From the NCBI GenBank assembly GCA_023259115.1, contig JAHFQW010000001.1, forward strand, positions 81,937 through 145,936: DNA of 64,000 nucleotides. The letters run 5' to 3'. The position numbers and the translations under genes were made by a program. How positions within the stretch are numbered: the first letter of the stretch is position 1; the number at the start of each line of letters is the position of its first letter. The stretch is from an archaeon (GTDB taxonomy: Archaea > Nanobdellota > Nanobdellia > Woesearchaeales > GW2011-AR9). Below, one piece after another: positions 9,058-64,000 of this stretch. Under the pieces are notes generated by a model. That model was not told the DNA's origin, searched no databases, and saw only the letters and a list, made by a program, of their open reading frames with translations.

Positions 9058-9447
9058 ATGGATATACAGAAAATCGTACAAAAAATATTAAAATTGGATA
9101 CAAAGAAAAAAGTGAAGTTCATAGTTCTTTTTGGGAGTGTGGCGAGAGGAGAGCATACCCCCCTTTCTGATATTGATTTTGCGGTGTATTATGATGGAAA
9201 AGTAGATGAACGATTTCGATTTCGTATCAAATTATTGGGTTTATTGCCAGATAGAGCTGATGTTCAGATGTTTCAAGATTTACCGTTGGCAGTACAAAAA
9301 GAGGTTATCAAAGGAAAAGTAGTATATTCAAATAATTTTCAGTTTGTGTTTGACTCGTTTATGAACGTTATCAAAGAGTTTAGTACGTTTGAAAAGTATT
9401 ATAATCGCGCTTTGGAAGAATTACGTAAAGAAGTGGGTGTGGTATGA
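9058..9447 (+). CDS. Minimal nucleotidyltransferase (MNT, antitoxin-type, Pol-beta superfamily)
   Basis: Motif LFGSVARGEHTPLSDIDFAV, i.e. GS-x9-13-D-x-D of Pol-beta-type NTases. 4-nt overlap with the downstream HEPN gene. Confidence 0.75.
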   Translation: MDIQKIVQKILKLDTKKKVKFIVLFGSVARGEHTPLSDIDFAVYYDGKVDERFRFRIKLLGLLPDRADVQMFQDLPLAVQKEVIKGKVVYSNNFQFVFDSFMNVIKEFSTFEKYYNRALEELRKEVGVV

Positions 9448-9866
9448 ATTTTAAAGATCGTATTATTTTGAAACTGCAAGAGATGAATAGGTACTTGCGT
9501 GATTTGGAAGAACTGCTGCCAGAGGATAAGAAAATTTATCTTATGAATCTCATGCAGCGAAGAGCATGTGAGAAGACAATAGAATTGGCAATTGAGGCGG
9601 TTATTGATATTGTGGCAATGATTGTTTCATATGAGAAATTAGGTGTGCCTGAGAGTGAGGATGATTTGATTAATTTCTTAGCAAAGAAAACGATTTTAAC
9701 ACAAAGAGTAAGAAACACCATACCTAAAATGAAAGGGTTTCGTAATATTTTAGTGCATAAATATGGCGAAATTGATAATGGTTTAGTTTATATGTTTTTA
9801 TCGGAGAAATTGGATGATTTTTATGAATTTGAAAAAGAGATTAAACGATATTTACAAAGAAACTAA
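9444..9866 (+). CDS. HEPN-domain protein (DUF86/HepT-like toxin)
   Basis: R-x4-H motif (FRNILVHKY) near the C-terminus. Paired with the upstream MNT in the classic MNT-HEPN operon arrangement. Confidence 0.7.
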   Translation: MNFKDRIILKLQEMNRYLRDLEELLPEDKKIYLMNLMQRRACEKTIELAIEAVIDIVAMIVSYEKLGVPESEDDLINFLAKKTILTQRVRNTIPKMKGFRNILVHKYGEIDNGLVYMFLSEKLDDFYEFEKEIKRYLQRN

Positions 9867-28099: not shown

Positions 28100-28460
28100 A
28101 GAAAATAAATAAACGATTTATTTTCCACAAGACAAAACCGCGATTTTGTCTGTGCACAAATAGGATAGTTTTCCTATTTTGTGTGTACAGAAATACGATC
28201 GTTTTCGTATTTCTTGTAAGTAAACTGCGTGCATAATGTAGTGAAATTCGCAAGAAATGGAACAAAATGTTGCGAATTTCAATATATAAATGAGTTTGAA
28301 TAACTATATCCGATTCAATGAAAATGCAAAAACCATTTTCAAGAGTAAAAATCACCTCAAGTGTTCAAATAGGCAAGTGATTTTTACTTGTCAAACTCAT
28401 TTAAGAAGAACTTTGAATTGATAAAATAAAATATTATTCAAAGTTCTCTATAAAAATTGC
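28100..28460 (+). repeat. Array of at least 6 consecutive unrelated perfect hairpins (stems 7-11 bp) in a 650-nt intergenic region
   Basis: GACAAAA/TTTTGTC. AAATAGGA/TCCTATTT. AGAAATACGA/TCGTATTTCT. GAAATTCGCAA/TTGCGAATTTC. GTAAAAATCAC/GTGATTTTTAC. GAACTTTGAA/TTCAAAGTTC. Confidence 0.5.
28344..28389 (+). repeat. AGTAAAAATC...GATTTTTACT hairpin repeat (copy 2)
   Basis: AGTAAAAATCAC-loop-GTGATTTTTACT, an 11-bp stem. Related to 19926-19987. Confidence 0.45.
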
Positions 28461-32795: not shown

Positions 32796-34157
32796 TTAGA
32801 GTTTATATCCTAGAGTTTTTACTGCGTTCATAAAAGGGATTTTTGTGTTTTCATCAATTAATCCTTCATCTTGGAACCATCTTAATGACTCGCGTCCGTT
32901 TCCCTGATGTCCAAGGCATAAGAAAAATATTTCTTTTGTTTTCTCATCGCGTGAAGAAATGGAGCTCTGGTAACTTTGTTTAATGTTAATTCTCTTAGTG
33001 AGGGTGTTTATACCAATGAGATCTTGCAGAGCGAGACTACGGAATCCATACACTTCTTTTTCAAATTCACAGAAGAGGGGTGTGTAATATAAAATGGCTT
33101 GGCTCATCTGTTTTTGTTCTCTAGGAGAACAGTTATTTGCTTCAAATTCAAATAGTGAGTTTAGTATTTCTATAAAATTATCTAGAGGCATACTTCTTTT
33201 TTGTTCTAGGGTCATGTGATAGGCAATTTTATGTATTGCTCTTTGGTATTCTCCTCCTAGGTTCCAACTCCCTCTATTAAATTTTGCATCAAATAAACGG
33301 AGACCATATTGTTGTTCGGTGGGTGATGTTGTAAATTCATCTTTTTCTAATATGGTTCCTACGGTGGGTGCAACAAGATCATTGACAATTCTCTCGGAAA
33401 AATCTACGATGTTATGCCCCATAGATCTTGTGTGTTGATACATAATTCGGGCATATTCGAATAGTGCGGGGTTAGAGAGTATTATTTCAGCAAAAGGTAA
33501 TTTTTCTAATGCTTGGGCAAAATCTTGATAGATCTCTTTACCATCCAGTTGTTTTCTGAGGATCCATTCTGCATATTCTAATGCCTCTTTTTTTGAAGCT
33601 GATTTAATGGTGTAATGGTTTTGTGAGAGAAGGGTAGAATTTGGACGTGAAGTGAGTAATATACGATTTTGGTTTAGTGTTTTTTGAATGAAATCTAGGG
33701 TTTGTTGCCGAGATTTTACATCAAATATTTCATCTAGTCCATCGAGAATGATGAGGGGGTCTTTTTGTTCTACGAGTTGTTGATATTTTTGAGGTTGTTC
33801 ATCAAGAATAGACAAAGTGACTTTAGAGAGATGGTCATATAATTCTGGAAGAGATTGAATAGAGGCGAAGTGTTCATCAAGACGGATGAAGAGAGGTGTT
33901 ACTTTGTGTTGAAAGGGAGAATATCCTTCCTGTGCTTGGTACGCAAGATGTTTTGCGACAACGCTTTTGCCTGAGCCACCATCACCAACTAAAATGTTAA
34001 TGCCGGTTTCAATTAATTTTTCTTCATTTACTTCATTTTTTGCTGTATCTTGGAGTATTGGCTTAAGAAAAGGCATGCATTTGCCAAGATAGAGGGGATG
34101 AGGAACACTTTTGTATTGTTGTGCTAATAAACTTAATTTTAGTTCGAGTTGTTGCAT
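32796..34157 (-). CDS. NACHT-type STAND P-loop NTPase
   Basis: Walker A GDGGSGKS. Walker B hhhhDGLDE (LIILDGLDE). Downstream LLTSRP sensor-like motif. ~250 aa C-terminal helical region. No recognisable N-terminal effector domain. Confidence 0.55.
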   Translation of the reverse strand: MQQLELKLSLLAQQYKSVPHPLYLGKCMPFLKPILQDTAKNEVNEEKLIETGINILVGDGGSGKSVVAKHLAYQAQEGYSPFQHKVTPLFIRLDEHFASIQSLPELYDHLSKVTLSILDEQPQKYQQLVEQKDPLIILDGLDEIFDVKSRQQTLDFIQKTLNQNRILLTSRPNSTLLSQNHYTIKSASKKEALEYAEWILRKQLDGKEIYQDFAQALEKLPFAEIILSNPALFEYARIMYQHTRSMGHNIVDFSERIVNDLVAPTVGTILEKDEFTTSPTEQQYGLRLFDAKFNRGSWNLGGEYQRAIHKIAYHMTLEQKRSMPLDNFIEILNSLFEFEANNCSPREQKQMSQAILYYTPLFCEFEKEVYGFRSLALQDLIGINTLTKRINIKQSYQSSISSRDEKTKEIFFLCLGHQGNGRESLRWFQDEGLIDENTKIPFMNAVKTLGYKL

Positions 34158-40931: not shown

Positions 40932-41369
40932 TTGTTTATGGATAAAGCATTTTACAAGTTTTTGGATCATACGGCGGATGTGATGTTTGTGGCGAAAGCG
41001 GCAACGTTACCTGAATTGTTTGAGCAGTGTGCTCTGGCAACAGAAGAGACAATGGTGGATGTTGCGAAGGTGAAGCAGAAGGAGCAGACGAAAATTTTAA
41101 TTGAGGAGAAGACGGTGGAACAGCTGCTGTTTAGTTTTTTGGATGAGTTGGTGTTTTTTAAGGATTATAAACAGATGATGTTTAGTACATTTGAGATTCA
41201 GATTGGTGAGGTAAAAGAGGGCTATGAGTTGAAGTGTGTGGCGCATGGGGAGAAGCTGGATATGACAAGACATAATCCTAAAGTAGATGTGAAAGCAGTT
41301 ACTATGCATTTGTTTAAAGTGGAGCAGAGTAATGGGTTGTGGAAGGCGCAGGTGATTTTGGATATTTGA
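40932..41369 (+). CDS. Archease (RtcB tRNA-ligase cofactor family)
   Basis: FLDHTADVMF (archease EHTAD(I/V) signature). ~140 aa size. C-terminal conserved Lys/Asp block. Confidence 0.7.
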   Translation: MFMDKAFYKFLDHTADVMFVAKAATLPELFEQCALATEETMVDVAKVKQKEQTKILIEEKTVEQLLFSFLDELVFFKDYKQMMFSTFEIQIGEVKEGYELKCVAHGEKLDMTRHNPKVDVKAVTMHLFKVEQSNGLWKAQVILDI

Positions 41370-43435: not shown

Positions 43436-43487
43436 TATAGATAATTCTGCAGATTAGATTACATTTGGCAGAATTATCTAATATAAC
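43436..43487 (+). repeat. Intergenic hairpin repeat, same family
   Basis: TATAGATAATTCTGC-agattagattacatttg-GCAGAATTATCTAATATAAC. Flanks and loop are conserved. Stem hexamer is changed with compensating change relative to the 28051 copy. Confidence 0.55.
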
Positions 43488-43594
43488 GAAGGACACAAAT
43501 AATCAATAAAATAGTTGTGTCCTTCGAATATAGTAAGTGATATTTGTATAAATATTTAGGTCACTTACTATAAGTAAATTCTGTCGATAATGAT

Positions 43595-43642
43595 TATCAA
43601 ATATAATACCAAAAATTAGCATAATTAACAGAATTTACTATA
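43595..43642 (+). repeat. Module-2 repeat (TATCAAATATAATACCAAAAATTAGCATAATTAACAGAATTTACTATA)
   Basis: ~90% identical to 63694-63740. Abuts the stop of the 43625..44548 minus-strand gene. Confidence 0.5.
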
Positions 43643-44994: not shown

Positions 44995-45123
44995 GTGGTT
45001 TTCTTTGATTTATAGTAATTGTGAATAATTTTTGTATATTTGCTATACTTTCTTTTAGTATTTTAACATTTCTTAGTATTCTAACACTTAGAAACCATAA
45101 CTTCTTTTTTGACTAATAAAAAG

Positions 45124-45221
45124 TAGCGGGGGGTGGACTTTCAGAGTTCTTGTGAACTTATTTGAACCACCGACCTATGGGTTATGAGCCCATCGGGCAC
45201 TCCGAGCTACCCTACCCCGCT
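45124..45221 (-). tRNA. Initiator tRNA-Met (anticodon CAT) with a 23-nt insertion immediately after the T-loop
   Basis: Hand-folded on the minus strand: AGCGGGG-TA-GGGT-AGCTCGGAGT-GCCC-G-ATGGG-CTCATAA-CCCAT-AGGTC-GGTGG-TTCAAAT-[AAGTTCACAAGAACTCTGAAAGT]-CCACC-CCCCGCT-A. A1:U72 and three G:C pairs at 29-31:39-41 are initiator hallmarks. Perfect acceptor, anticodon and T stems. Confidence 0.65.
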
Positions 45222-45341
45222 ATATATCTTAGAAAAGAGGAGTGTTTTAAAAAGGTTTGGTTTGGATTTGGTATAATTTTTGGTGGAAGATTTGCTTTTA
45301 TGAGGTTAATATTTATAAATAATCTATCATTCTGATGATGT

Positions 45342-48140: not shown

Positions 48141-51100
48141 TTGGTTGTTGAGAGCGGTTTTGCGATGAAGAAGGTGGTTTTATTATTGTTGGTACTCTTG
48201 GTTTCTTTTTCTATTGTGTATGCTGCTGATGTGCATGTTGATGCGAAGGTGCAGGAGGCGTTGGTGCATGGTTCAAATGCGTCGGTGATTGTGGTGCTCA
48301 AGCATTCTTCAAGTGCCGTGGCTGATTTAGGTTTAGAGAGTGCAGGGGCTGATGATGAGATGGTTGCTTCTGTTGGTGGTGGTGATGGTAGTAATAGATT
48401 TAGGGGTTTGAGAGGCACTCGCGTTTTAAAAGAGGTGGAATTACGTGAGGAGCGTCAAAAACAGGAAGCGAGAGTTGTAGAAGAAAATGTACTTGGGGGG
48501 TTACGAGTGCGAGAAGAGGGGATAGTGAAAAACTCGATGAATAACTCAGTGACAAATTTAGTGACAAACTCAGAGAAAAGTTTGGGGAATAGTTCAGGGT
48601 TGGATGTTGAGGATGTAGTTAGTATAGATGATTCTGTGGGTTATAATACATTTTGTACAGAATTATCTAATAAGACAATTCTGAATAGTTGTCATATCAG
48701 TAACAGAATTGTCTATAATGATACTTATGATATTGCGCTACGTACACGATATAATTTATTTAATGGATTTAGCGGTGATGTGACGGCAGAGGGATTGAAA
48801 AAATTGCAGGAAAATTCACAAGTTGAGAGTGTGTATCTGGATGAGGAGCGGCATGTGTTTTTAACGGATTCGGTGCCGCAGATTAATGCAAATAAAGTGT
48901 GGAATTTTTCGCTGAGTCATTATAATATTACAGGTGTTGGGGAAACGGTGTGTGTGGTTGATACGGGTATCAATTATAGCCATAGTGGATTAGGTGGAGG
49001 ATTAGGTATTCGAGTGATTGATGGATATGATTTTGTGAATTCAGATACAGATCCGGCAGATGATCATGGCCATGGTACGCATGTGGCAGGAATTATTGGT
49101 TCAAATGATAGTGTGTATAGAGGTGTTGCACCGGGAGTTAAATTTGTGGCGTTGAAAGCGTGTAATTCAGGTGGCTCATGTAGTGATTCTAATGTGTTGT
49201 CAAGTATTAGTTGGTGTATTGATAATTCAACTATCTATAATATCTCGGTGATTAGTATTAGTTTAGGCGGGGGTCAATATACGAGTTATTGCGACAATGA
49301 TGTGAATTCGCAGTATCATTCGTTGATTGGTCAGGCGGTAGGGAAGAATATCAGTGTGGTTATTGCAACGGGGAATACGGGAAGCACGTATACCAATAAT
49401 ACAGGAGGTATTGCGGCGCCGGCGTGTATCCAGAATGCGACACGAGTAAGTGCGGTGGATAAATCGGATGTGATGGCGAGTTATGCGTTTCGGCATTTTA
49501 ATTTTACAGATATTATTGCAGCGCCCGGGAGTTCTATTACGTCGTTATCGTATACAGGTGGAACGACGACGTTATCGGGTACATCGATGTCGACACCGCA
49601 TGTGTCAGGAGCTGTTGCGTTGATGCGGCAGTATTGGCGATTAGCATATACGCAGACGCCGTCGGTTAGTTTTGTGACAAATAAGATTCTCAAGACGGGA
49701 GTTTCTATTGATGATACGGGAAGTGGATCTACGTTGATAATTCCTCGTGTTAATATATTGGCGTTGCTACAGCCATTCATTAATTATACCACGACGAGCG
49801 TGGTAAATGGATCGGTGCGTAATGTGAATACGGCGTTGATTAACATTAGTTCAGATGTGAATTTAAGCTCTGCGTTGTTGGAGTGGCATTATAATAATGG
49901 GACGATTCGCAATATTTCGATGAGTTCTTTTAATGGTACGAGTTATTCTTTAACGCTTGGCAATTTGGCGGATGGGACGGATTTTTATGAGGTATATGGG
50001 AATGATACCGCGAATACGTTTGGGCAAATAAGTATTCGTAATATTACCGTTGATGCAACGGTGCCGGCAGTTACGGTTGTAAATCCAGCGAATGGCACAA
50101 ATATGAGTAGTGGTAGCGCAGCGTTTAATGCGACGGTTTTGGAGAAGAATATTGATAGTGTATTATTTAGTTTTGATAATGTGACGGGAAGCGGGGTGGC
50201 GTTTAATGTGACGGCAACGAATAGCAGCGGCAATTGGAATGCGAATGTGGATTTGACGCGGTTGAAGGAAGGTAGGCATGTGATGAATGTACTGGCAAAT
50301 GATACGGCAGGGAATTATAATAGGTCTTCAATTGTGCAATTTGTGGTGGATAGAACGGCGCCGAATGTGACGGTTATTATACCGTTTTCTAATCGTAATT
50401 TCACGTTGAGTTCAGGCAATCAGACGTTTAATGTTTCATTGCGGGAGAGTTTGTTAACGGTAGATTCAGTTATTTTTAGTTTTGATAATGCGAGTGGTGT
50501 GAATTTTAATGTGACGGCGCAGAATAATTCAGGGTATTGGGCTGTATCTTATAATGTGTCGAGTTTAGCTGAAGGGAGCCATACGATGACGGTGCTTGCT
50601 AATGATACGGTGGGGAATTATAATCGGACGGTAAATGTATCGTTTACGGTGGATTTTACGGTGCCAAGTGTGACGTTGAATGCGCCGAGCGCGGGAGTAG
50701 TGTTTACAATAGTATCTAGCAACCAGACGTTTAATGCAACGATTCGCGATGGTGTTAGCGGGGTGCGTGATGTGGTATTTAGTTTTGCTAATTCTACTAC
50801 GGGGTTTAATGTGACGGCGCAGAATAATTCAGGCTATTGGATTGTTTCATATAATGTTTCTACGTTGGGACATGGCAGTCATAGTATAGTGGTGTTTGCT
50901 AATGATTCAGCGGGTAATATGAATACGACAAGTTCGGTGAGTTTTACAGTGGATTTAGATACACCTCTGGCGATTTTAAATAGTCCGGTGGATTTTTTTA
51001 ATTCTTCTACGGCATTACTGGTGTTTAATTGTTCTACTTTGGATAATACCAGTTTGTTGAATGTGACGTTGTATGGAAATTGGAGCAGTGGCTGGCATGG

Positions 51101-52016
51101 GAATGTGACGACATCTATTTCGGGGAGAAATAATGAGACGACGTTTAGTCGTACACTGCTTGATGGGACATATAGGTGGAGTTGTTTAGCAGGTGATGGG
51201 CAGGGTAATGTAGGGTTTGCGAGCAGTAATTATACGATTACAGTGGATACAGTATATCCGTTGATTACGTCTGTGAGTTCGGGAAGTCCCACTTCATCTG
51301 CGGCGACAATTACGTGGACGACAAGTGAGGGGGGGAATGCGAGTGTGGATTATGGTGTAGATACGTCTTTAGGTTCGCGCAGCTCGAGTTTGACGTTTAG
51401 TACTTCGCATAGTGTGGGGTTGTCTGGCTTGACTGCTTCAACTACGTATTATTATAATGTGACGAGTTGTGATGCTTCGGGGAATTGTAATACGACTGGT
51501 ATGAATTCTTTTACGACAGCGTCTTCTGGTGGAAGTGGCAGTAGTAGTTCTTCGTCTGGTGGCGGTGGCGGAGGAGGAGGCGGGGGTGGAGGTGGTGGTG
51601 GTTCTTCGAGTAAGATTGCAGCGGCTGTTACAACAACACCTGTCAAAATTGAAACTCCTGTTGCAAAAGAACCTAGTGCGCCAGCAGCAGAGAGCGGGGG
51701 AGCTGGAGCTGCAGTGAGTGTGCTTTCAGATGGTGGAAGTAGCAGGGGAGAGAGCAAGAATGAGATAGCTGCGGCGTTAGGGCAAGATAAAGGTTCGACT
51801 AATTTGGCAGGAAATGCTGCGAGTGTGGGTCAGAGTTCTACGAGTTCACGTTTGGCGCTAGCAGGAAGGGCGTTCTTTCAGAGCGGAGTACAATTATTTA
51901 AGAATAAAGTAGTATTAGGTGTGATGGTTGTAATTGTGGGATTATTGATTATTATTTTATCTTTATTGTCCTGGAGAAGAAAGAATGAAGTGGCGAAGCA
52001 GGGGTTTGGGTTTTGA
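48141..52016 (+). CDS. Subtilisin-like serine protease (S8) with long N-glycosylation-sequon-rich Ig-like tandem repeats, poly-Gly and Thr/Pro linker and C-terminal TM anchor
   Basis: Catalytic triad blocks VCVVDTGIN (Asp), HGHGTHVAGII (His), GTSMSTPHVSGA (Ser). N-terminal signal peptide. At least 3 tandem ~85-aa repeats (FNVTAQNNSGYW...VLANDT.GNYN...FTVD). GGGGGGGGGGGGGGG tract. C-terminal hydrophobic helix plus RRKN tail. Contains the 97-nt repeat at 48623-48719. Confidence 0.8.
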   Translation: MVVESGFAMKKVVLLLLVLLVSFSIVYAADVHVDAKVQEALVHGSNASVIVVLKHSSSAVADLGLESAGADDEMVASVGGGDGSNRFRGLRGTRVLKEVELREERQKQEARVVEENVLGGLRVREEGIVKNSMNNSVTNLVTNSEKSLGNSSGLDVEDVVSIDDSVGYNTFCTELSNKTILNSCHISNRIVYNDTYDIALRTRYNLFNGFSGDVTAEGLKKLQENSQVESVYLDEERHVFLTDSVPQINANKVWNFSLSHYNITGVGETVCVVDTGINYSHSGLGGGLGIRVIDGYDFVNSDTDPADDHGHGTHVAGIIGSNDSVYRGVAPGVKFVALKACNSGGSCSDSNVLSSISWCIDNSTIYNISVISISLGGGQYTSYCDNDVNSQYHSLIGQAVGKNISVVIATGNTGSTYTNNTGGIAAPACIQNATRVSAVDKSDVMASYAFRHFNFTDIIAAPGSSITSLSYTGGTTTLSGTSMSTPHVSGAVALMRQYWRLAYTQTPSVSFVTNKILKTGVSIDDTGSGSTLIIPRVNILALLQPFINYTTTSVVNGSVRNVNTALINISSDVNLSSALLEWHYNNGTIRNISMSSFNGTSYSLTLGNLADGTDFYEVYGNDTANTFGQISIRNITVDATVPAVTVVNPANGTNMSSGSAAFNATVLEKNIDSVLFSFDNVTGSGVAFNVTATNSSGNWNANVDLTRLKEGRHVMNVLANDTAGNYNRSSIVQFVVDRTAPNVTVIIPFSNRNFTLSSGNQTFNVSLRESLLTVDSVIFSFDNASGVNFNVTAQNNSGYWAVSYNVSSLAEGSHTMTVLANDTVGNYNRTVNVSFTVDFTVPSVTLNAPSAGVVFTIVSSNQTFNATIRDGVSGVRDVVFSFANSTTGFNVTAQNNSGYWIVSYNVSTLGHGSHSIVVFANDSAGNMNTTSSVSFTVDLDTPLAILNSPVDFFNSSTALLVFNCSTLDNTSLLNVTLYGNWSSGWHGNVTTSISGRNNETTFSRTLLDGTYRWSCLAGDGQGNVGFASSNYTITVDTVYPLITSVSSGSPTSSAATITWTTSEGGNASVDYGVDTSLGSRSSSLTFSTSHSVGLSGLTASTTYYYNVTSCDASGNCNTTGMNSFTTASSGGSGSSSSSSGGGGGGGGGGGGGGGSSSKIAAAVTTTPVKIETPVAKEPSAPAAESGGAGAAVSVLSDGGSSRGESKNEIAAALGQDKGSTNLAGNAASVGQSSTSSRLALAGRAFFQSGVQLFKNKVVLGVMVVIVGLLIIILSLLSWRRKNEVAKQGFGF
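48623..48719 (+). mobile_element. 97-nt palindromic repeat element, copy B (in frame inside subtilase 48141..52016)
   Basis: See copy A. Confidence 0.6.
51556..51603 (+). repeat. GGN microsatellite encoding a poly-Gly tract inside the subtilase gene
   Basis: GGTGGCGGTGGCGGAGGAGGAGGCGGGGGTGGAGGTGGTGGTGGT encodes 15 consecutive Gly. Confidence 0.6.
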
Positions 52017-54470: not shown

Positions 54471-57400
54471 GTGGTGGCTATGGGAACGGGTGGACGGAAT
54501 CATCGTTTTATTATTACGGGGTTTGTGTTAGTGTTTGCGCTCTTTGCGGTGGTGCTATATCATGAGTCTACAACTTCTTCACTTGATGTGACGGGATATG
54601 TTATTTTAGAGGATGGAGTGAGAGTGAGTACGCAGAAGATGGATAGTTCTTTGGTTACAGAGATTAGAGGGGGAGATGTGACGCCTAAAGTGGTGGTGGT
54701 CTTAGATGAGAGTGCAAGTGTGAATACTGATGGTGTAGGTGGTGGGAAAAGTCAGCAAGAATTTATTGATCAATTAAAACAAAATATTGTTGTGTCGGAT
54801 TCTTCTTCTGCGAGGAGTGGTGTTGAGGATGTGAAGAAAATAAGCAGTAGTGGGAGTAGTGGGGTTGATGGCAGTTCAGATTTTGCGTTGACACATACAT
54901 TTAGTTCTGTCTCAGCGATTGCAGGGGAAGTTACAAGTGCAGATGGGTTAGTTGAGCTGACTAAAAACAAACATGTTAGAAAAATTTTGTTAGATTATCC
55001 GGTGAGTGTGAATTTGGATAAAAGTGCATTACACATTAATGCGCCTCGTGTGTGGAATGTGACGTTGAATGGCTCAAGTGTTGATGGCCGAGGGGGGGCT
55101 GTGTGTATTATTGATACGGGTGTTGATTATGCGCATGCGGCGCTAGGTGGATGTAGTGCTGCAACGATGCAGTTGAATGGGGCAGTTGAGATGCTTTCTG
55201 TACCGGTTGAGTCAAGTCATCCGTATAGTGATACTATGGATCAGACATGGGTTATACAGCGTGAAGGATTTGAACATATGGCGCTGCATTTTTCTAAGAT
55301 TGAATTAGAGCAGATATCAAGTGCGGGGGATACGACGGATAGGGTATATGTTTATGATTCACAAAATAGGACAGTTGCTGTCTACAAAGGTATTTCAAAT
55401 GATATGTGGACGCCTTCGGTTCTAGGGGATATGATGTATGTGCGTTTGGTGTCAGATGGTTCGGTGAGTGGGTATGGATTTTCTGTTGATTCTATAATTA
55501 ATGGAACGACGAATGTGACGATGGATTGGAGCGGATGTTCTAAAGTTGTGGGGGGATATGATGTGTATAATAATGATGCGAATCCTCAAGATGATCATGG
55601 CCATGGTACGCATGTGGCGGGTATTATCGGTTCAACGGATTTGACATATAGGGGGATTGCACCAGGGGCAAACATTGTGGCATTGAAGGCGATGAGTGGT
55701 TCGGGGAGCGGTTATTCGTCTGATGTGTTGGCGGCAATGGAGTGGTGTACGAAAAATAAAGAAAAGTTTGGTATTTCGGTTATTAGTATGAGTTTAGGGT
55801 GTGATGGAGGGAGTTGTCCGCATTATCAGACTTATTGTTCGGATGATATTTTAGCAAGTGCGGTTGCAGGGGCGATTGCTAAAAATATTAGTGTGGTTGT
55901 GGCGGCAGGGAATTCAGGCTGGGTGGATGGGATTTCAAGTCCGGCGTGTATCAATGGCGTGATTCCAGTTGGTGGGGTGAATAGTGCGGATGAAATTTTG
56001 TTTAACCGTGGGAAATTGTTGCGATTGCTTGCGCCAGCGCAAGGTATTACGTCGGCAAAGTTAGCAGGGGGATTTGTGGCGTTGAGTGGTACGTCGATGG
56101 CAACTCCGCATGTTGCAGGGGCAATTTTGTTGTTGCAGGATTATGCAAAACGTGTGTATGGGCGGGAATTGACATCGGCAGAGGTGAATGTGAAGTTAAT
56201 TGAGAGTGGGAAGAAGGTGTATGATAGTAGGGTGGGGTTGAATTTTTCACGTATTGATGTATTTGCGGCAATTGGTGGAGCTGAGGGTTTGAGTGGTGTT
56301 AATAAAAATGTGTCAAATAGTTCAGCGGTTATTTTGAATGAAACAGAAAGAATTGGTGATTTAAGTTTGATTGTACTCCCTGTGAATAATAGTTATGTTT
56401 CTACTCTGTTGAATGTGAGTGTTGCTGCTCGTAGTAATGTGTCGTTGTATGGGGTGTGGTATAGTGTTTCTGGAGATAATGGGAGTGTGTTGTTGAATAA
56501 TTCAATGGTGTGGGATGTGTCGGGTGCTACTAGTTCTGTTGAGAATTATACTCTTTTTGATTCTGTTGTTGTGTCTGGTTGGAGGGAGGGGAGTTATACT
56601 TTAGCAAGTTATGTGATTGATAGGGAAGGAAAAGAGGTGTTTGTGTTTTCTACTTTTAATGTGGATAGAACATTTCCTCGTGTTGGGAATGTAGATTATA
56701 TGCCTGTTTTACTATATACAAATACGAGTGCGTTGTTTACGGTTATTGTGAATGAGAGTTCTATTGATTCTACTTTGGTTAAATTGTGGTATACGGTTAA
56801 TGGGAGTGATTGGCAGAGTGGGGTTATGAGTAAGGATATGAGTGGACGAACTTGGGGAAGTGGTGCGGGAAGTGAGGTGTATACGTATTCATTGAATTTG
56901 ACGCAGTTTGCACCAAATAGTGTGTTGCAATTTTATGTTTCAGGGAGTGATTTGGCGGGTAATGTGAATACGAGTGCGATGGGGAATGTGACGATATATG
57001 AGGGGGTGAATGCGGTTGTGGTGCCGCCGGTGAATGCGGGTGCTGCTGTGCTTACTATTACGTCTCCTTTGAATGGGTCGGTTGTTGAGGTTGGCAGTGT
57101 TATTTCTTATACTGGTGTGGTTGAGAATTTGAATGTGTCACGTGTGTTTTGGAATTTTTCTAGTGGGGGGAGTGATACTGTTTTGAGTGGTGTTACGCAG
57201 TTTATAGATAATTCTGTGGGGTATAATACCTTTTGTACAGAATTATCTAATAAGACAATTCTGAATAGTTGTTATATAAGTAACAGAATTGTCTATAATA
57301 AGACGGGAATTGTTGTGATGCAAGTATGGGTGAATGCAACAGAGGGACAATTTGCAGTGAATACAACTGTTGTTGTGAATGATACAACTGCTCCAAAAAT

Positions 57401-58076
57401 TGAGATGATGAGTTTTGCAAAAGAGATTCATCTTGGTAAAGTTAAGAGTCAACAAGTGAATGTGAGTGTGTTTGATTATTCAGGGATTTCGGCTTTAACG
57501 CTGGGGCTCAATGGAGTATTAGAGAATGGGGTGTGTTCAAAAGAGAGTAGTCGCTGGAGTTGCGGGTGGAATATGTCGAATTTGAGTTTGGGGAATGCAA
57601 CGTTAATGTTGACTGTTGCGGATGGGGCGAGTGTGGTGCATACTAATCTGACAAATTATACGTTTGTGGTGCAATCCTGTAGTGATTTTATACAAAATGG
57701 GGATGAGGCGGGAGTTGATTGTGATGGTTCTTGTGGTGCTTGTAATGGAAGTGTATCAAGTGCTAATGTGAGTGCGGTGATTGAGGCAACGCCTGTGGCT
57801 GCTGCGGTGGCAGATGTTGCTCAGTCTACGCCTGTGGTAGTGGCAGCACCTGTTGATTCTACTGTGGTGAATAAGGCAGAAGGAGTAGTACCGGTTCAGA
57901 CGGCTTCTGTGAAGAATCAGGAAGTTGGGCAGAGTGCGGATAAAAAAGAAGTTGCAAGTGCGAGTGTGGTGCAAGCAACGGATGAGAGTCAGAAAGAGGG
58001 AGTGTTGTATGTGCTAGGTTTACTGGTTGTGGTATTGAGTGGGTTGTATGTGTTTATGATGCGGGAAGGTCTGTGA
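54471..58076 (+). CDS. Second subtilisin-like serine protease (S8) with sequon-rich extracellular domains and C-terminal TM anchor
   Basis: VCIIDTGVD, HGHGTHVAGIIGS and GTSMATPHVAGA catalytic blocks. N-terminal TM/signal anchor. C-terminal Ala/Val/Pro-rich linker plus hydrophobic helix (LYVLGLLVVVLSGLYVFMM). Contains the 97-nt repeat at 57203-57299. Confidence 0.8.
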   Translation: MVAMGTGGRNHRFIITGFVLVFALFAVVLYHESTTSSLDVTGYVILEDGVRVSTQKMDSSLVTEIRGGDVTPKVVVVLDESASVNTDGVGGGKSQQEFIDQLKQNIVVSDSSSARSGVEDVKKISSSGSSGVDGSSDFALTHTFSSVSAIAGEVTSADGLVELTKNKHVRKILLDYPVSVNLDKSALHINAPRVWNVTLNGSSVDGRGGAVCIIDTGVDYAHAALGGCSAATMQLNGAVEMLSVPVESSHPYSDTMDQTWVIQREGFEHMALHFSKIELEQISSAGDTTDRVYVYDSQNRTVAVYKGISNDMWTPSVLGDMMYVRLVSDGSVSGYGFSVDSIINGTTNVTMDWSGCSKVVGGYDVYNNDANPQDDHGHGTHVAGIIGSTDLTYRGIAPGANIVALKAMSGSGSGYSSDVLAAMEWCTKNKEKFGISVISMSLGCDGGSCPHYQTYCSDDILASAVAGAIAKNISVVVAAGNSGWVDGISSPACINGVIPVGGVNSADEILFNRGKLLRLLAPAQGITSAKLAGGFVALSGTSMATPHVAGAILLLQDYAKRVYGRELTSAEVNVKLIESGKKVYDSRVGLNFSRIDVFAAIGGAEGLSGVNKNVSNSSAVILNETERIGDLSLIVLPVNNSYVSTLLNVSVAARSNVSLYGVWYSVSGDNGSVLLNNSMVWDVSGATSSVENYTLFDSVVVSGWREGSYTLASYVIDREGKEVFVFSTFNVDRTFPRVGNVDYMPVLLYTNTSALFTVIVNESSIDSTLVKLWYTVNGSDWQSGVMSKDMSGRTWGSGAGSEVYTYSLNLTQFAPNSVLQFYVSGSDLAGNVNTSAMGNVTIYEGVNAVVVPPVNAGAAVLTITSPLNGSVVEVGSVISYTGVVENLNVSRVFWNFSSGGSDTVLSGVTQFIDNSVGYNTFCTELSNKTILNSCYISNRIVYNKTGIVVMQVWVNATEGQFAVNTTVVVNDTTAPKIEMMSFAKEIHLGKVKSQQVNVSVFDYSGISALTLGLNGVLENGVCSKESSRWSCGWNMSNLSLGNATLMLTVADGASVVHTNLTNYTFVVQSCSDFIQNGDEAGVDCDGSCGACNGSVSSANVSAVIEATPVAAAVADVAQSTPVVVAAPVDSTVVNKAEGVVPVQTASVKNQEVGQSADKKEVASASVVQATDESQKEGVLYVLGLLVVVLSGLYVFMMREGL
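57203..57299 (+). mobile_element. 97-nt palindromic repeat element, copy C (in frame inside subtilase 54471..58076)
   Basis: See copy A. Confidence 0.6.
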
Positions 58077-61483: not shown

Positions 61484-61690
61484 ATGTCTACGACAATACA
61501 GGTTAATGACGATACGATGATTTTTTTGAAGAAGTTACGGTTGCAGTACGAGGCGTCTTCGTATGATGCATTGTTACAAATTCTGGTTAAAAAAGATTTG
61601 AAGCCAAAAAAGTCGTTATGGGGTGCGGGAGGGAAGATGACGATGAAAGAGATTCTGTCGGATTTGAGGGATAAACATGACCGATACTAA
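61484..61690 (+). CDS. VapB-like antitoxin (small DNA-binding partner of a PIN toxin)
   Basis: 68-aa ORF overlapping the downstream PIN gene by 14 nt. Typical TA operon architecture. Confidence 0.45.
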   Translation: MSTTIQVNDDTMIFLKKLRLQYEASSYDALLQILVKKDLKPKKSLWGAGGKMTMKEILSDLRDKHDRY

Positions 61691-62069
61691 CTCTGGAGCG
61701 GTGTCTAGGATTATTTGTCTTGATTCTTCTGCGTGGCTGGCGTATTATTTTGCTGAGAATAATGAGGTTAAAGAAATCGTTGATGGTTCTGTGCTTGTGA
61801 TGACTTCTTCATTATGTCTATTTGAGGTAAAGAAACGATTGTTAATTTTGAAAAAAGATTTTAAAGTGCTGCTTGATTTTATTAAACAGCGCGGGGAAAT
61901 AGTTTTTCCGGATGTGGTTATTGTGGAGAGAGCGGCGGAGTTTGCAGTGGAGAAGAAATTGGGAGCGATGGATGCGTTGATTTATGCAACGAGTGTTAGT
62001 TGTAGAGCGAAATTGATTAGCGGGGATAATGATTTTCGTGGTTTGGAGGGAGTGAGGATTATTTCTTGA
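61677..62069 (+). CDS. PIN-domain VapC-like toxin
   Basis: IICLDSSAWLAY (first Asp). ...MDALIYATSV... and C-terminal GDNDF acidic residues fit PIN. ~130 aa. Confidence 0.55.
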   Translation: MTDTNSGAVSRIICLDSSAWLAYYFAENNEVKEIVDGSVLVMTSSLCLFEVKKRLLILKKDFKVLLDFIKQRGEIVFPDVVIVERAAEFAVEKKLGAMDALIYATSVSCRAKLISGDNDFRGLEGVRIIS

Positions 62070-63063: not shown

Positions 63064-63169
63064 ATATTCCTAAAAACTTAAATAGGGAACTTGTTTTTGT
63101 GTATTTTATACGGCTGTGATCCAACCTCGCTATCGTTCGGAGGATCACTGCGTATTCACTTGCGTTCAT

Positions 63170-63347
63170 ACGGCTGTGATCTAGTGGTATGATGTGAGCT
63201 TCCCACGCAACTTTTAAGAAAAGTTGCATCAAAACAGGGCCTACGGGTGGTGAGAACGAGCTTAACGGGGAGTTTACGGAAACAGCTTAATGTCCGGGTT
63301 CGATTATGCGTTACGTTTGTAATGCGACGAGAGTCCCGGCAGCCGTA
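63170..63347 (+). tRNA. Candidate multi-intron tRNA (tentative anticodon CCC, Gly) with ~82-nt intron at 37/38 and ~29-nt insertion after the T-loop
   Basis: Hand fold: ACGGCTG-TG-ATCT-AGTGGTA-TGAT-G-TGAGC-TTCCCA[intron]A-GCTTA-ATGT-CCGGG-TTCGATT-[29 nt]-CCCGG-CAGCCGT-A, followed by a T7 run. Acceptor, anticodon and T stems pair. D stem has one mismatch. A1:U72 is unusual for an elongator. Confidence 0.4.
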
Positions 63348-63668
63348 GTTTTTTTCTATTTAAGTTTCACTCCTCATATCTATCTCCTTCACAGCAGGGT
63401 TTGATGTGGTGGCAGTTATTATAGAGGGGTTTGATTAACCATCTAAAATTCCTCAAACCCCTCTAAGAAGTATACCAACGAACCTAATTTTTAATTAAAG
63501 TAGTTATGTTCGTTGTACAAGAAAACAAACAACGATTTGTTTTCTGTACAGAAAATAAGTTGTTTCTTATTTTCTTGTATATACAAAAGCACTAACTATT
63601 TTTGGAATTAATTAGTGCTTTTGGTATACTTTGAATAATTGATGAAAATAGGGTTATTCAAAGTCCTC

Positions 63669-63740
63669 TATAGATAATTCTGCTGATTAGATTATCAGAT
63701 ATAATACAAAAAATTAGCCTAATTAACAGAATTTACTATA
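63669..63740 (+). repeat. Composite intergenic repeat: TAGATAATTCTGC module fused to the module-2 repeat (...AATTAACAGAATTTACTATA)
   Basis: The 5' part matches 43436-43450. The 3' part matches 43595-43642 at ~90%. Confidence 0.5.
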
Positions 63741-63876
63741 CAGATGTATTTCTGTTTGATTGGTTCCATTTCGTGCTGGCATTGTTCGCAGAGGAGGGGC
63801 ATAGATAGTATATTTTCTTTGAGAATTAAAATGTTACGACAGCTTTTTATAGTATTGTGAGGCTCTAGGTGTTTAT

Positions 63877-64000
63877 GGGCGCGTGGCTCAACGGTACTTT
63901 GTTCATATAATCTGGATAAGGCGAAAAAGAGCGCTTCGTTCGCAACGAAGAGGTTTCGGGTTCAAATAGATACAATCAATAAGGTTGTTTGAGAAAGTCC
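63877..64000 (+). tRNA. Candidate tRNA (anticodon CGC, Ala-like) with 32-nt D-loop intron, truncated by window end (probably a further insertion after the T-loop)
   Basis: GGGCGCG-TG-GCTC-AACGGTA-[32 nt]-GAGC-G-CTTCG-TTCGCAA-CGAAG-AGGTT-TCGGG-TTCAAAT-... Perfect D, anticodon and 5' T-stem pairing once the 63897-63928 insertion is removed. 3' T-stem and acceptor strand not found before the window ends. Confidence 0.45.

Follow-up and report, generated by a model that had tools for sequence, protein, structure and literature searches.

Our analysis of a 64-kb stretch of DNA (hereafter the window, 64,000 nucleotides numbered from its first letter) identified a real archaeal initiator tRNA-Met gene in the DNA of a member of the Woesearchaeota (DPANN), located at 45221..45124 on the minus strand and interrupted by 23 nt between T-loop positions 59 and 60. 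The junctions of the interruption form a BHB motif, this motif is conserved with covariation in initiator genes of other archaea, and removal of the 23 nt leaves a regular cloverleaf. We put the probability that this is an EndA-type intron at 59/60 inside a functional initiator tRNA gene, carried by a 98-nt precursor, at about 0.9.

An interrupted initiator tRNA-Met gene of a Woesearchaeota archaeon

The host is an archaeon, as the window harbors an S13-S4-S11-RpoD-L18e-L13-S9 operon together with genes for Spt5, SecE, and the primase small subunit. The best named relatives of RpoD and Spt5 (76-83% identity) are found in records of Candidatus Woesearchaeota, Nanoarchaeia or Nanoarchaeota, and the window sequence recurs in several metagenome assemblies. 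Further genes of the window include iPGM, polyamine biosynthesis genes, subtilases, and archease.

The initiator tRNA-Met(CAU) gene (45124..45221, minus strand) is 98 nt long with its intron and 75 nt long in mature form, and CCA is absent from the gene. Direct reading of the minus strand from 45221 to 45124 gives AGCGGGG TA GGGT AGCTCGGAGT GCCC G ATGGG CTCATAA CCCAT AGGTC GGTGG TTCAAAT, followed by the 23-nt insert AAGTTCACAAGAACTCTGAAAGT and then by CCACC CCCCGCT A. Exon 1 (tRNA positions 1-59, 61 nt, 45161..45221, minus strand), delimited by a BHB scan combined with ARAGORN and by hand reading, contains the T-stem strand GGTGG (45171..45167) and the T-loop sequence TTCAAA; exon 2 (positions 60-73, T CCACC CCCCGCT A, 45124..45137, minus strand) was delimited by reading, ARAGORN, and the BHB scan as well. 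Excision of the 23 nt restores the cloverleaf, which ARAGORN calls as a 75-nt tRNA-Met(cat), and the drawing of the spliced sequence shows a CAU anticodon, an A1:U72 pair, and G:C pairs at 29-31:39-41. This confirms the fold given in a preliminary description of the locus, in which these same features appeared on the minus strand once the 23 nt were taken out. The A1:U72 pair is a criterion for archaeal initiator tRNA-Met (PMC5393177).

A search pattern was built from the anticodon-arm, T-arm, and 3' acceptor sequence of the window gene, with several positions left degenerate. Its matches include initiator genes of many archaeal groups, and most of these genes, when their 5' end is uninterrupted, start with AGCGGGG. 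The window gene has this exon type, AGCGGGG...GGGCTCATAACCC...CCCCGCTA, which is common to archaeal initiators, and the identical gene with its intron is present in independent metagenome assemblies (L120 and L121).

Upstream of the gene, a TATA-box-like sequence, TTTTTAAAA, was read at 45245..45253 on the minus strand (-32..-24 from tRNA position 1), where it may act as the promoter element. TATA-like boxes lie at an equal distance before the tRNA-Ala gene of the window (63877) and before the element upstream of its tRNA-Gly gene, both described below. On the other side, an oligo-T run (45118..45122, minus strand, also identified by reading) directly follows discriminator base A73 and is likely an archaeal terminator.

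The 23-nt intron lies within a BHB motif at position 59/60

The intron (TAAGTTCACAAGAACTCTGAAAG, 23 nt, 45160..45138, minus strand) was placed by the BHB scan, which found a central helix with zero mismatches. Its layout is T AAGTTCACAAGAACTC TGAA AG, with an internal hairpin, AGTTC-ACAA-GAACT, that corresponds to helix h', and its G+C content is 35% by our own count compared with 61% in the exons. In a BHB motif, each 3-nt bulge lies 3' of its central-helix strand and is cut between its second and third nucleotides. We took this rule from the canonical 37/38 intron, in which the anticodon stem ends at position 31, the central helix comprises positions 32-35, and the bulge consists of 36, 37 and, beyond the cut, intron nucleotide 1.

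In the initiator gene, the 5' strand of the central helix is T54-A57 (TTCA, 45163..45166, minus strand), which pairs with TGAA at intron nt 18-21 (45143..45140) through four of four Watson-Crick pairs. The two 3-nt bulges are AA|T (A58 A59 | T, 45162..45160) and AG|T (A G | T60, 45139..45137). The outer helix h is the T-stem, GGTGG/CCACC, with all five pairs formed, and the inner helix h' is AGTTC/GAACT, of 5 bp with an ACAA loop, separated from the central helix by one A.C mismatch. The motif formed at the exon-intron junctions is a strict hBHBh' except for this one A.C pair; since the mismatch occupies the first inner-helix pair, the 5' bulge side is slightly relaxed. The preliminary description had placed the intron at about position 60/61, and while its T-loop site stands, the BHB motif fixes the exact position at 59/60. 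As there is a T at either end of the intron, the mature RNA is identical under the two placements.

The minimum-energy fold of the 98-nt precursor, with z = -2.9, keeps the acceptor, D, anticodon, and T stems as well as the intron hairpin. The central 4-bp helix is absent from this minimum-energy structure, which is expected of a 4-bp helix isolated between bulges. Other classes of interruption were also considered and rejected: the anticodon loop CTCATAA is uninterrupted and the intron lies in the T-loop, which is incompatible with a canonical 37/38 intron; the exons are contiguous and in normal order, which is incompatible with a split or permuted tRNA gene; and the insert has only 23 nt, as against the hundreds of nucleotides in the catalytic core of a self-splicing group I or group II intron, with no intron matches in Rfam.

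Given that the insert folds into its own stable hairpin, it could conceivably remain after maturation and form an additional arm at the T-loop, yielding a structurally unusual initiator tRNA. From general knowledge of tRNA, a retained insert would break the T54-A58 pair and the contacts between the T-loop and the D-loop. It would also give no role to the two 3-nt bulges or to the conserved base pairs that TTCA forms with the intron's 3' end, although these together are exactly what an EndA substrate requires. In addition, 59/60 introns have been published for ARMAN-2, whose EndA cuts BHB pre-tRNA substrates in vitro (PMC3239211). We consider the retention of the 23 nt extremely improbable, and treat them as an intron in what follows.

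Standard searches miss the tRNA genes of the window

ARAGORN returned no tRNA from the raw 64-kb window, either with default settings or with its canonical-intron option. The suggestion to search for the gene with the intron option therefore failed on the raw window (zero genes), whereas the spliced sequence was called as tRNA-Met(cat). Lowering the ARAGORN threshold to 80% produced 124 calls, which were plainly spurious and were discarded. Likewise, Rfam gave no match in the window at the gathering score, and a permissive E-value scan of the full window did not list tRNA; a local Rfam search of 251 nt gave a partial tRNA match of 15.1 bits that ends within the insert.

The BHB scan covered both strands of the full window and accepted excisions of 10-130 nt with a 4-bp central helix containing at most one mismatch and with two outer-helix pairs. 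Approximately 390,000 candidate excisions satisfied this loose rule, and each of them was spliced in silico and passed to ARAGORN. A tRNA was returned only at the initiator locus, where the best solution was the 23-nt intron after position 59 with zero mismatches, and this combined procedure gave no false positives elsewhere in the window. The recovery of the initiator tRNA exceeds chance expectation.

Neither ARAGORN nor the Rfam tRNA model at its curated threshold detects any of the three tRNA genes of the window (this gene and the tRNA-Gly and tRNA-Ala genes described below), and herein lies the main practical interest of the initiator gene. Annotation artefacts therefore explain at least part of the incompleteness of tRNA sets in MAGs of this kind, as already suspected for DPANN genomes (PMC5829648). 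A T-arm intron escapes tools that model 37/38 introns only. Introns of this type are modeled by tRNAscan-SE 2.0 (PMC8450103).

Initiator genes of other archaea carry a structured intron at the same site

To cover other archaea, one genome per species was scanned with the initiator exon pattern, allowing a gap in the T-arm region, which gave at least 119 loci. About two thirds of the 119 loci listed were bacterial fMet tRNA genes with a chance or duplicated CCCCGCTA behind them, and were excluded; the bacterial matches fail the T-stem or the central-helix test. Our analysis identified at least 25 distinct archaeal initiator genes (that of the window and at least 24 others) with an intron of 21-37 nt located exactly at 59/60. 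According to submitter labels, they belong to at least eight high-level groups: Thermoproteota, Bathyarchaeia, Hadarchaeia, Thermococci, Asgard, Woesearchaeota, Micrarchaeota, and Aenigmatarchaeota. Among the matches listed, the labels include Ignisphaera, Desulfurococcales, and Thermoproteales; Bathyarchaeia, Hadarchaeia, a Thermococci MAG, and Candidatus Njordarchaeum (Asgard); three Woesearchaeota (L014, L064, and L098), Micrarchaeota, and Aenigmatarchaeota; and two MAGs labeled Methanosarcinales and two labeled only "uncultured archaeon". At least four further genes, two labeled Aenigmatarchaeota and two "uncultured archaeon", have an insertion a few nucleotides further 3'. A tblastn comparison of the genes flanking the initiator tRNA with 30 archaeal loci revealed no common neighborhood.

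Across the 25 archaeal initiator genes, the T-stem is paired in 125 of 125 cells. The central helix is paired in 92 of 100 cells, compared with 42-59 of 100 when its partner is slid, and the first six pairs of the inner helix are formed in 136 of 150 cells (91%), compared with 63-82 of 150 (42-55%) in the slid controls. Up to six standard pair types occur at a given inner-helix position, and the intron sequences are unrelated among the 25 genes. Pairing that is kept while the sequence is not is the mark of a structure under selection, and this structure is that of an EndA substrate. Both the junction motif and the covariation across the 25 genes agree with the earlier proposal that the 23 nt are a non-canonical T-loop intron, predicted to be of the protein-spliced (BHB) type.

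The rejection of the locus by standard tRNA finders would also be expected of a tRNA pseudogene with a random 23-nt insertion that is never removed. This explanation is highly improbable, considering that a BHB with zero mismatches arises in one register only, which is where the insertion is found, that the two exons are undamaged and agree with the initiator tRNAs of other archaea, and that the gene is flanked by a TATA-like box and an oligo-T run. Furthermore, the same architecture recurs, with covarying helices, in at least 24 other archaeal initiator genes, and a pseudogene here would require all three tRNAs of the window to be pseudogenes. The evidence favors a functional initiator gene with a removable intron.

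The other tRNA genes of the window and the turnover of their introns

A tRNA-Gly(CCC) gene with two introns is located at 63170..63347 on the plus strand, and ARAGORN calls it as tRNA-Gly(ccc) once both introns are removed. The first is a canonical 37/38 intron of 78 nt (63206..63283), with central helix TTCC:GGAA and bulges CA|C and AC|A. The second is a 59/60 intron of 29 nt (63305..63333), with central helix TTCG:CGAG, bulges AT|T and AG|T, and an 8-bp inner helix.

The third tRNA gene, a plus-strand tRNA-Ala(CGC) gene (63877..64000), is cut off by the end of the window and has insertions in the D-loop and at 59/60. Its 59/60 insertion (31 nt, 63967..63997) would pair TTCA with AGAA through three of four pairs, and its D-loop insertion has approximate boundaries of 63897..63928. 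A complete homologue in a related contig (L126, 155-297) has G3:U70 and both insertions, the D-loop insertion being ~32 nt in the window and ~35 nt in L126. The D-loop insertion starts with CTTT right after GGTA and ends with GCG(A/G)AAAA before the D-stem, and a D-loop intron in the tRNA-Gly gene of another relative (L139) starts in the same way. We found no strict BHB for the tRNA-Ala D-loop insertion; the best solution in both genomes has three of four central pairs and leaves an 11-nt D-loop, and the insertion may use a relaxed motif.

Each of the three tRNA genes of the window is thus interrupted at 59/60, and the tRNA-Gly and tRNA-Ala genes have a second interruption. This bears out the earlier observation that two other tRNA candidates of the window had insertions at the same place, and identifies them as tRNA-Gly(CCC) and tRNA-Ala(CGC).

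Orthologues of the tRNA-Gly(CCC) gene were retrieved by way of Spt5 homologues with 83-89% identity, and their intron sets differ. L132 has no intron, L131 has only the 37/38 intron, and L140 has only a 59/60 intron, of 19 nt. L139 combines its D-loop intron with a 59/60 intron of 16 nt, and L138 combines a 37/38 intron with a 59/60 intron of 260 nt. Both introns are also present in L136/L137, L126, and the window gene, with 59/60 introns of 68, 17, and 29 nt, respectively. By our count, 59/60 introns occur in five of eight distinct tRNA-Gly(CCC) genes (that of the window and four of seven orthologues from related contigs). Such varied intron sets among orthologues indicate that gain, loss, and resizing are fast in this group, and Woesearchaeota are unusually rich in 59/60 introns.

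The 260-nt intron of L138 (minus strand) resembles the 19-nt intron of L140, with the same ends (AGAAT...TCCGAATG) and about 240 nt added in the loop. Parts of this insert resemble hairpin-rich intergenic repeats of the window (28154-28455, 43436-43642, and 63350-63860); for instance, TAGAGGGGTTTGATT...CAAACCCCTCTAAGAAG at 63421-63468 is 78% identical to the L138 insert over 49 nt. Intergenic segments of the window also resemble each other, as seen for 63676-63740 and 43577-43642 (89%). Judging from these similarities, the intergenic and intron repeats may be small mobile or regulatory repeat modules.

A conserved element (63108-63169) lies directly upstream of the tRNA-Gly(CCC) gene. It opens with a copy of the first ~12-20 nt of the tRNA, differing at positions 9, 10, and 13: ATACGGCTGTGATC has one copy at 63108-63121 and a second copy at the start of the tRNA (63168-63181). 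A TATA-like box, CTTAAATA (-33..-26), precedes the upstream copy and not tRNA-Gly itself. The element is also present in L126, L131, and L136/L137, where a longer version includes the hairpin GTG[GA]GTTT/AAG[CT][CT]CA[CT], with compensatory changes, and it is absent from L132, L138, L139, and L140. In L136 the tRNA has a second TATA box of its own, and the element therefore looks like a separate small transcription unit. We also considered the duplicated 5' end as a third intron and rejected this, as it gives only a trivial repeat-derived motif (GGCT/GGCT or a GATC palindrome) almost without flanking helices; no convincing BHB links the upstream element to tRNA-Gly. The element might be the 5' fragment of a split tRNA, a tRNA-derived small RNA, or a structured leader.

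Choice of position 59/60 and origin of the initiator intron

Position 59/60 follows the sixth nucleotide of a 7-nt T-loop on a 5-bp stem, and the same geometry is found at 37/38 in the anticodon arm, which makes 59/60 the T-arm equivalent of the canonical site. The common position in all three tRNAs of the window is explained by the register of the BHB (31+6 = 37 and 53+6 = 59), with no need for a special enzyme preference. Nor is the site lineage-specific, because 59/60 is a published recurrent site and our scan places it in at least eight archaeal groups. The preliminary description had read the shared position as a lineage-specific preference of the splicing endonuclease; this idea is not upheld, as the site is a published hot spot, occurs across those groups, and is accounted for by geometry. 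What does survive of the lineage idea is the richness and fast turnover of 59/60 introns in Woesearchaeota.

The identical site in the same tRNA is shared by DPANN, Asgard, Thermoproteota, Bathyarchaeia, Hadarchaeia, and Thermococci-labeled genomes. From this distribution, the initiator intron could be viewed as an ancient, vertically inherited archaeal feature kept for function and not as a recurrent accident. We consider this view clearly unlikely; the wide distribution and the conserved structure fit inheritance and repeated gain alike and cannot separate the two. If it were true, the intron could possibly impose an order on the maturation or modification of the T-loop, or protect the usually single-copy initiator gene from integrating elements.

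A different origin, which concerns only where the intron came from, is a recent insertion by intron transposition within this genome. The three 59/60 introns of the window share a local pattern, with TA at the start and GA(A/G)AG at the end, which would speak for this origin, although these shared ends are mostly forced by the BHB itself. The tRNA-Gly orthologues of close relatives gain, lose, and resize their 59/60 intron quickly, and there is a precedent in the intron transposition proposed for Thermoproteales, as stated in the passage of PMC4090602 that cites Fujishima 2010. On the other hand, the same tRNA is interrupted at this site in the Woesearchaeota loci L014, L064, and L098 as well as in many distant archaea, which fits inheritance or strong recurrence. 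We therefore regard a recent insertion as a tentative possibility that is somewhat unlikely. Both proposals bear on the history of what we read as an EndA-type intron.

Strand asymmetry and other features of the window

The window has a GC skew of +0.34 (16729 G and 8180 C on the plus strand, positions 1-64000), which is positive in all 2-kb windows except one (about -0.02, at 52-54 kb). Plus-strand genes show a skew of +0.80 at third codon positions; for minus-strand genes the third-position value is -0.62 on the coding strand, equivalent to +0.62 on the plus strand. As the third-position skew is positive on the plus strand for both gene orientations, it looks like a mutational or replication-strand bias and not like a coding effect. 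Elsewhere, L126 has a GC skew of -0.25, and other Woesearchaeota loci are near 0. Two UDG genes and a HhH-GPD glycosylase gene are encoded in the window with this extreme skew. A literature search on GC skew in DPANN found nothing relevant.

In addition, the window harbors candidate defense or toxin-antitoxin genes at 9058-9866, 61677-62069, and 32796-34157, the types represented being a nucleotidyltransferase/HepT pair (MNT-HEPN type), a PIN-domain protein, and a NACHT/STAND NTPase. The window also encodes two subtilases of the secreted type (48141-52016 and 54471-58076), which are very large (1291 and 1201 amino acids) and contain Ig-like, fn3, and CUB domains, and homologous large S8 peptidases are encoded near Spt5 in L131, L135, and L139. 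The GC skew, the tRNA-Gly-derived element, and the fast turnover of tRNA-Gly introns may be more unusual than the initiator intron.

Proposed maturation of the initiator tRNA

By analogy with the established archaeal pathway, from which the enzymatic steps are drawn, we infer transcription, cleavage, and ligation of the precursor in the following order. The gene would be transcribed into a 98-nt precursor with the 23-nt intron between T-loop positions 59 and 60. EndA would recognize the hBHBh' built on the T-arm and cut in both bulges, and the RtcB ligase, with archease as its helper, would ligate the two exons. Addition of CCA would be the last step, giving a normal 75-nt (+CCA) initiator tRNA.

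Archease is a cofactor of the RtcB tRNA-splicing ligase. An archease gene (Pfam PF01951, E = 2.4e-42) is located at 40932..41369 on the plus strand, 4 kb from the initiator tRNA. Pfam scans of ~60 ORFs of the 64-kb window gave no tRNA_int_endo or RtcB match, and thus no EndA or RtcB gene.

Comparison with known systems

Position 59/60 is listed among the non-canonical archaeal intron sites (PMC4090602) and is a recognized intron, split, and permutation site (PMC4090602; PMC3239211; PMC3218864); it is also used by the red alga Cyanidioschyzon merolae (PMC3978253). Because the intron class, the site, and the DPANN context have all been published, the initiator intron comes as a small surprise, and what is new here is one more example of a well-described class of archaeal tRNA introns. 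The at least 24 further initiator genes with a 59/60 intron may help in tracing the origin and persistence of tRNA introns, as may the set of closely related tRNA-Gly orthologues with zero, one or two introns of 16 to 260 nt.

A close parallel is ARMAN-2, in which 59/60 introns are found in pre-tRNA-Cys(GCA) and pre-tRNA-Pro(GGG), and whose EndA acts in vitro on pre-tRNA substrates with strict as well as relaxed BHB motifs, cutting both (PMC3239211). The two cases have in common the position, an outer helix supplied by the T-stem, the shortness of the intron, the DPANN host, and the frequent co-occurrence of other introns in the same gene. They differ in that the intron described here interrupts initiator Met in Woesearchaeota, and in that its motif is a near-strict hBHBh', whereas that of ARMAN-2 tRNA-Cys is of the relaxed hBH type.

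DPANN lineages are also reported to possess a loop-bearing alpha4 EndA alongside numerous disrupted tRNA genes, with incomplete automatic tRNA sets; one of the four DPANN genomes analyzed came from Woesearchaeota (PMC5829648). The window resembles those genomes, whose alpha4 EndA carries an L3 loop, in its DPANN host, in its many non-canonical or multiple introns, and in the incomplete tRNA sets that automatic prediction gives.

The initiator tRNA itself is disrupted at this position in Thermofilum pendens, where a permuted tRNA-iMet(CAU) gene has its junction at 59/60 (PMC3218864). There, the order of the two pieces is reversed, the 3' one being upstream, and the transcript must be circularized and reopened, whereas here the exons are in normal order and simple excision would be sufficient.

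Finally, the initiator intron can be compared with the canonical 37/38 intron of archaea and eukaryotes. Both follow the same BHB logic, with a 5-bp stem, a 7-nt loop, and a cut after the sixth loop nucleotide, and the same enzymes are expected to act on them; the difference is that in the initiator gene of this Woesearchaeota archaeon the T-arm takes the place of the anticodon arm.
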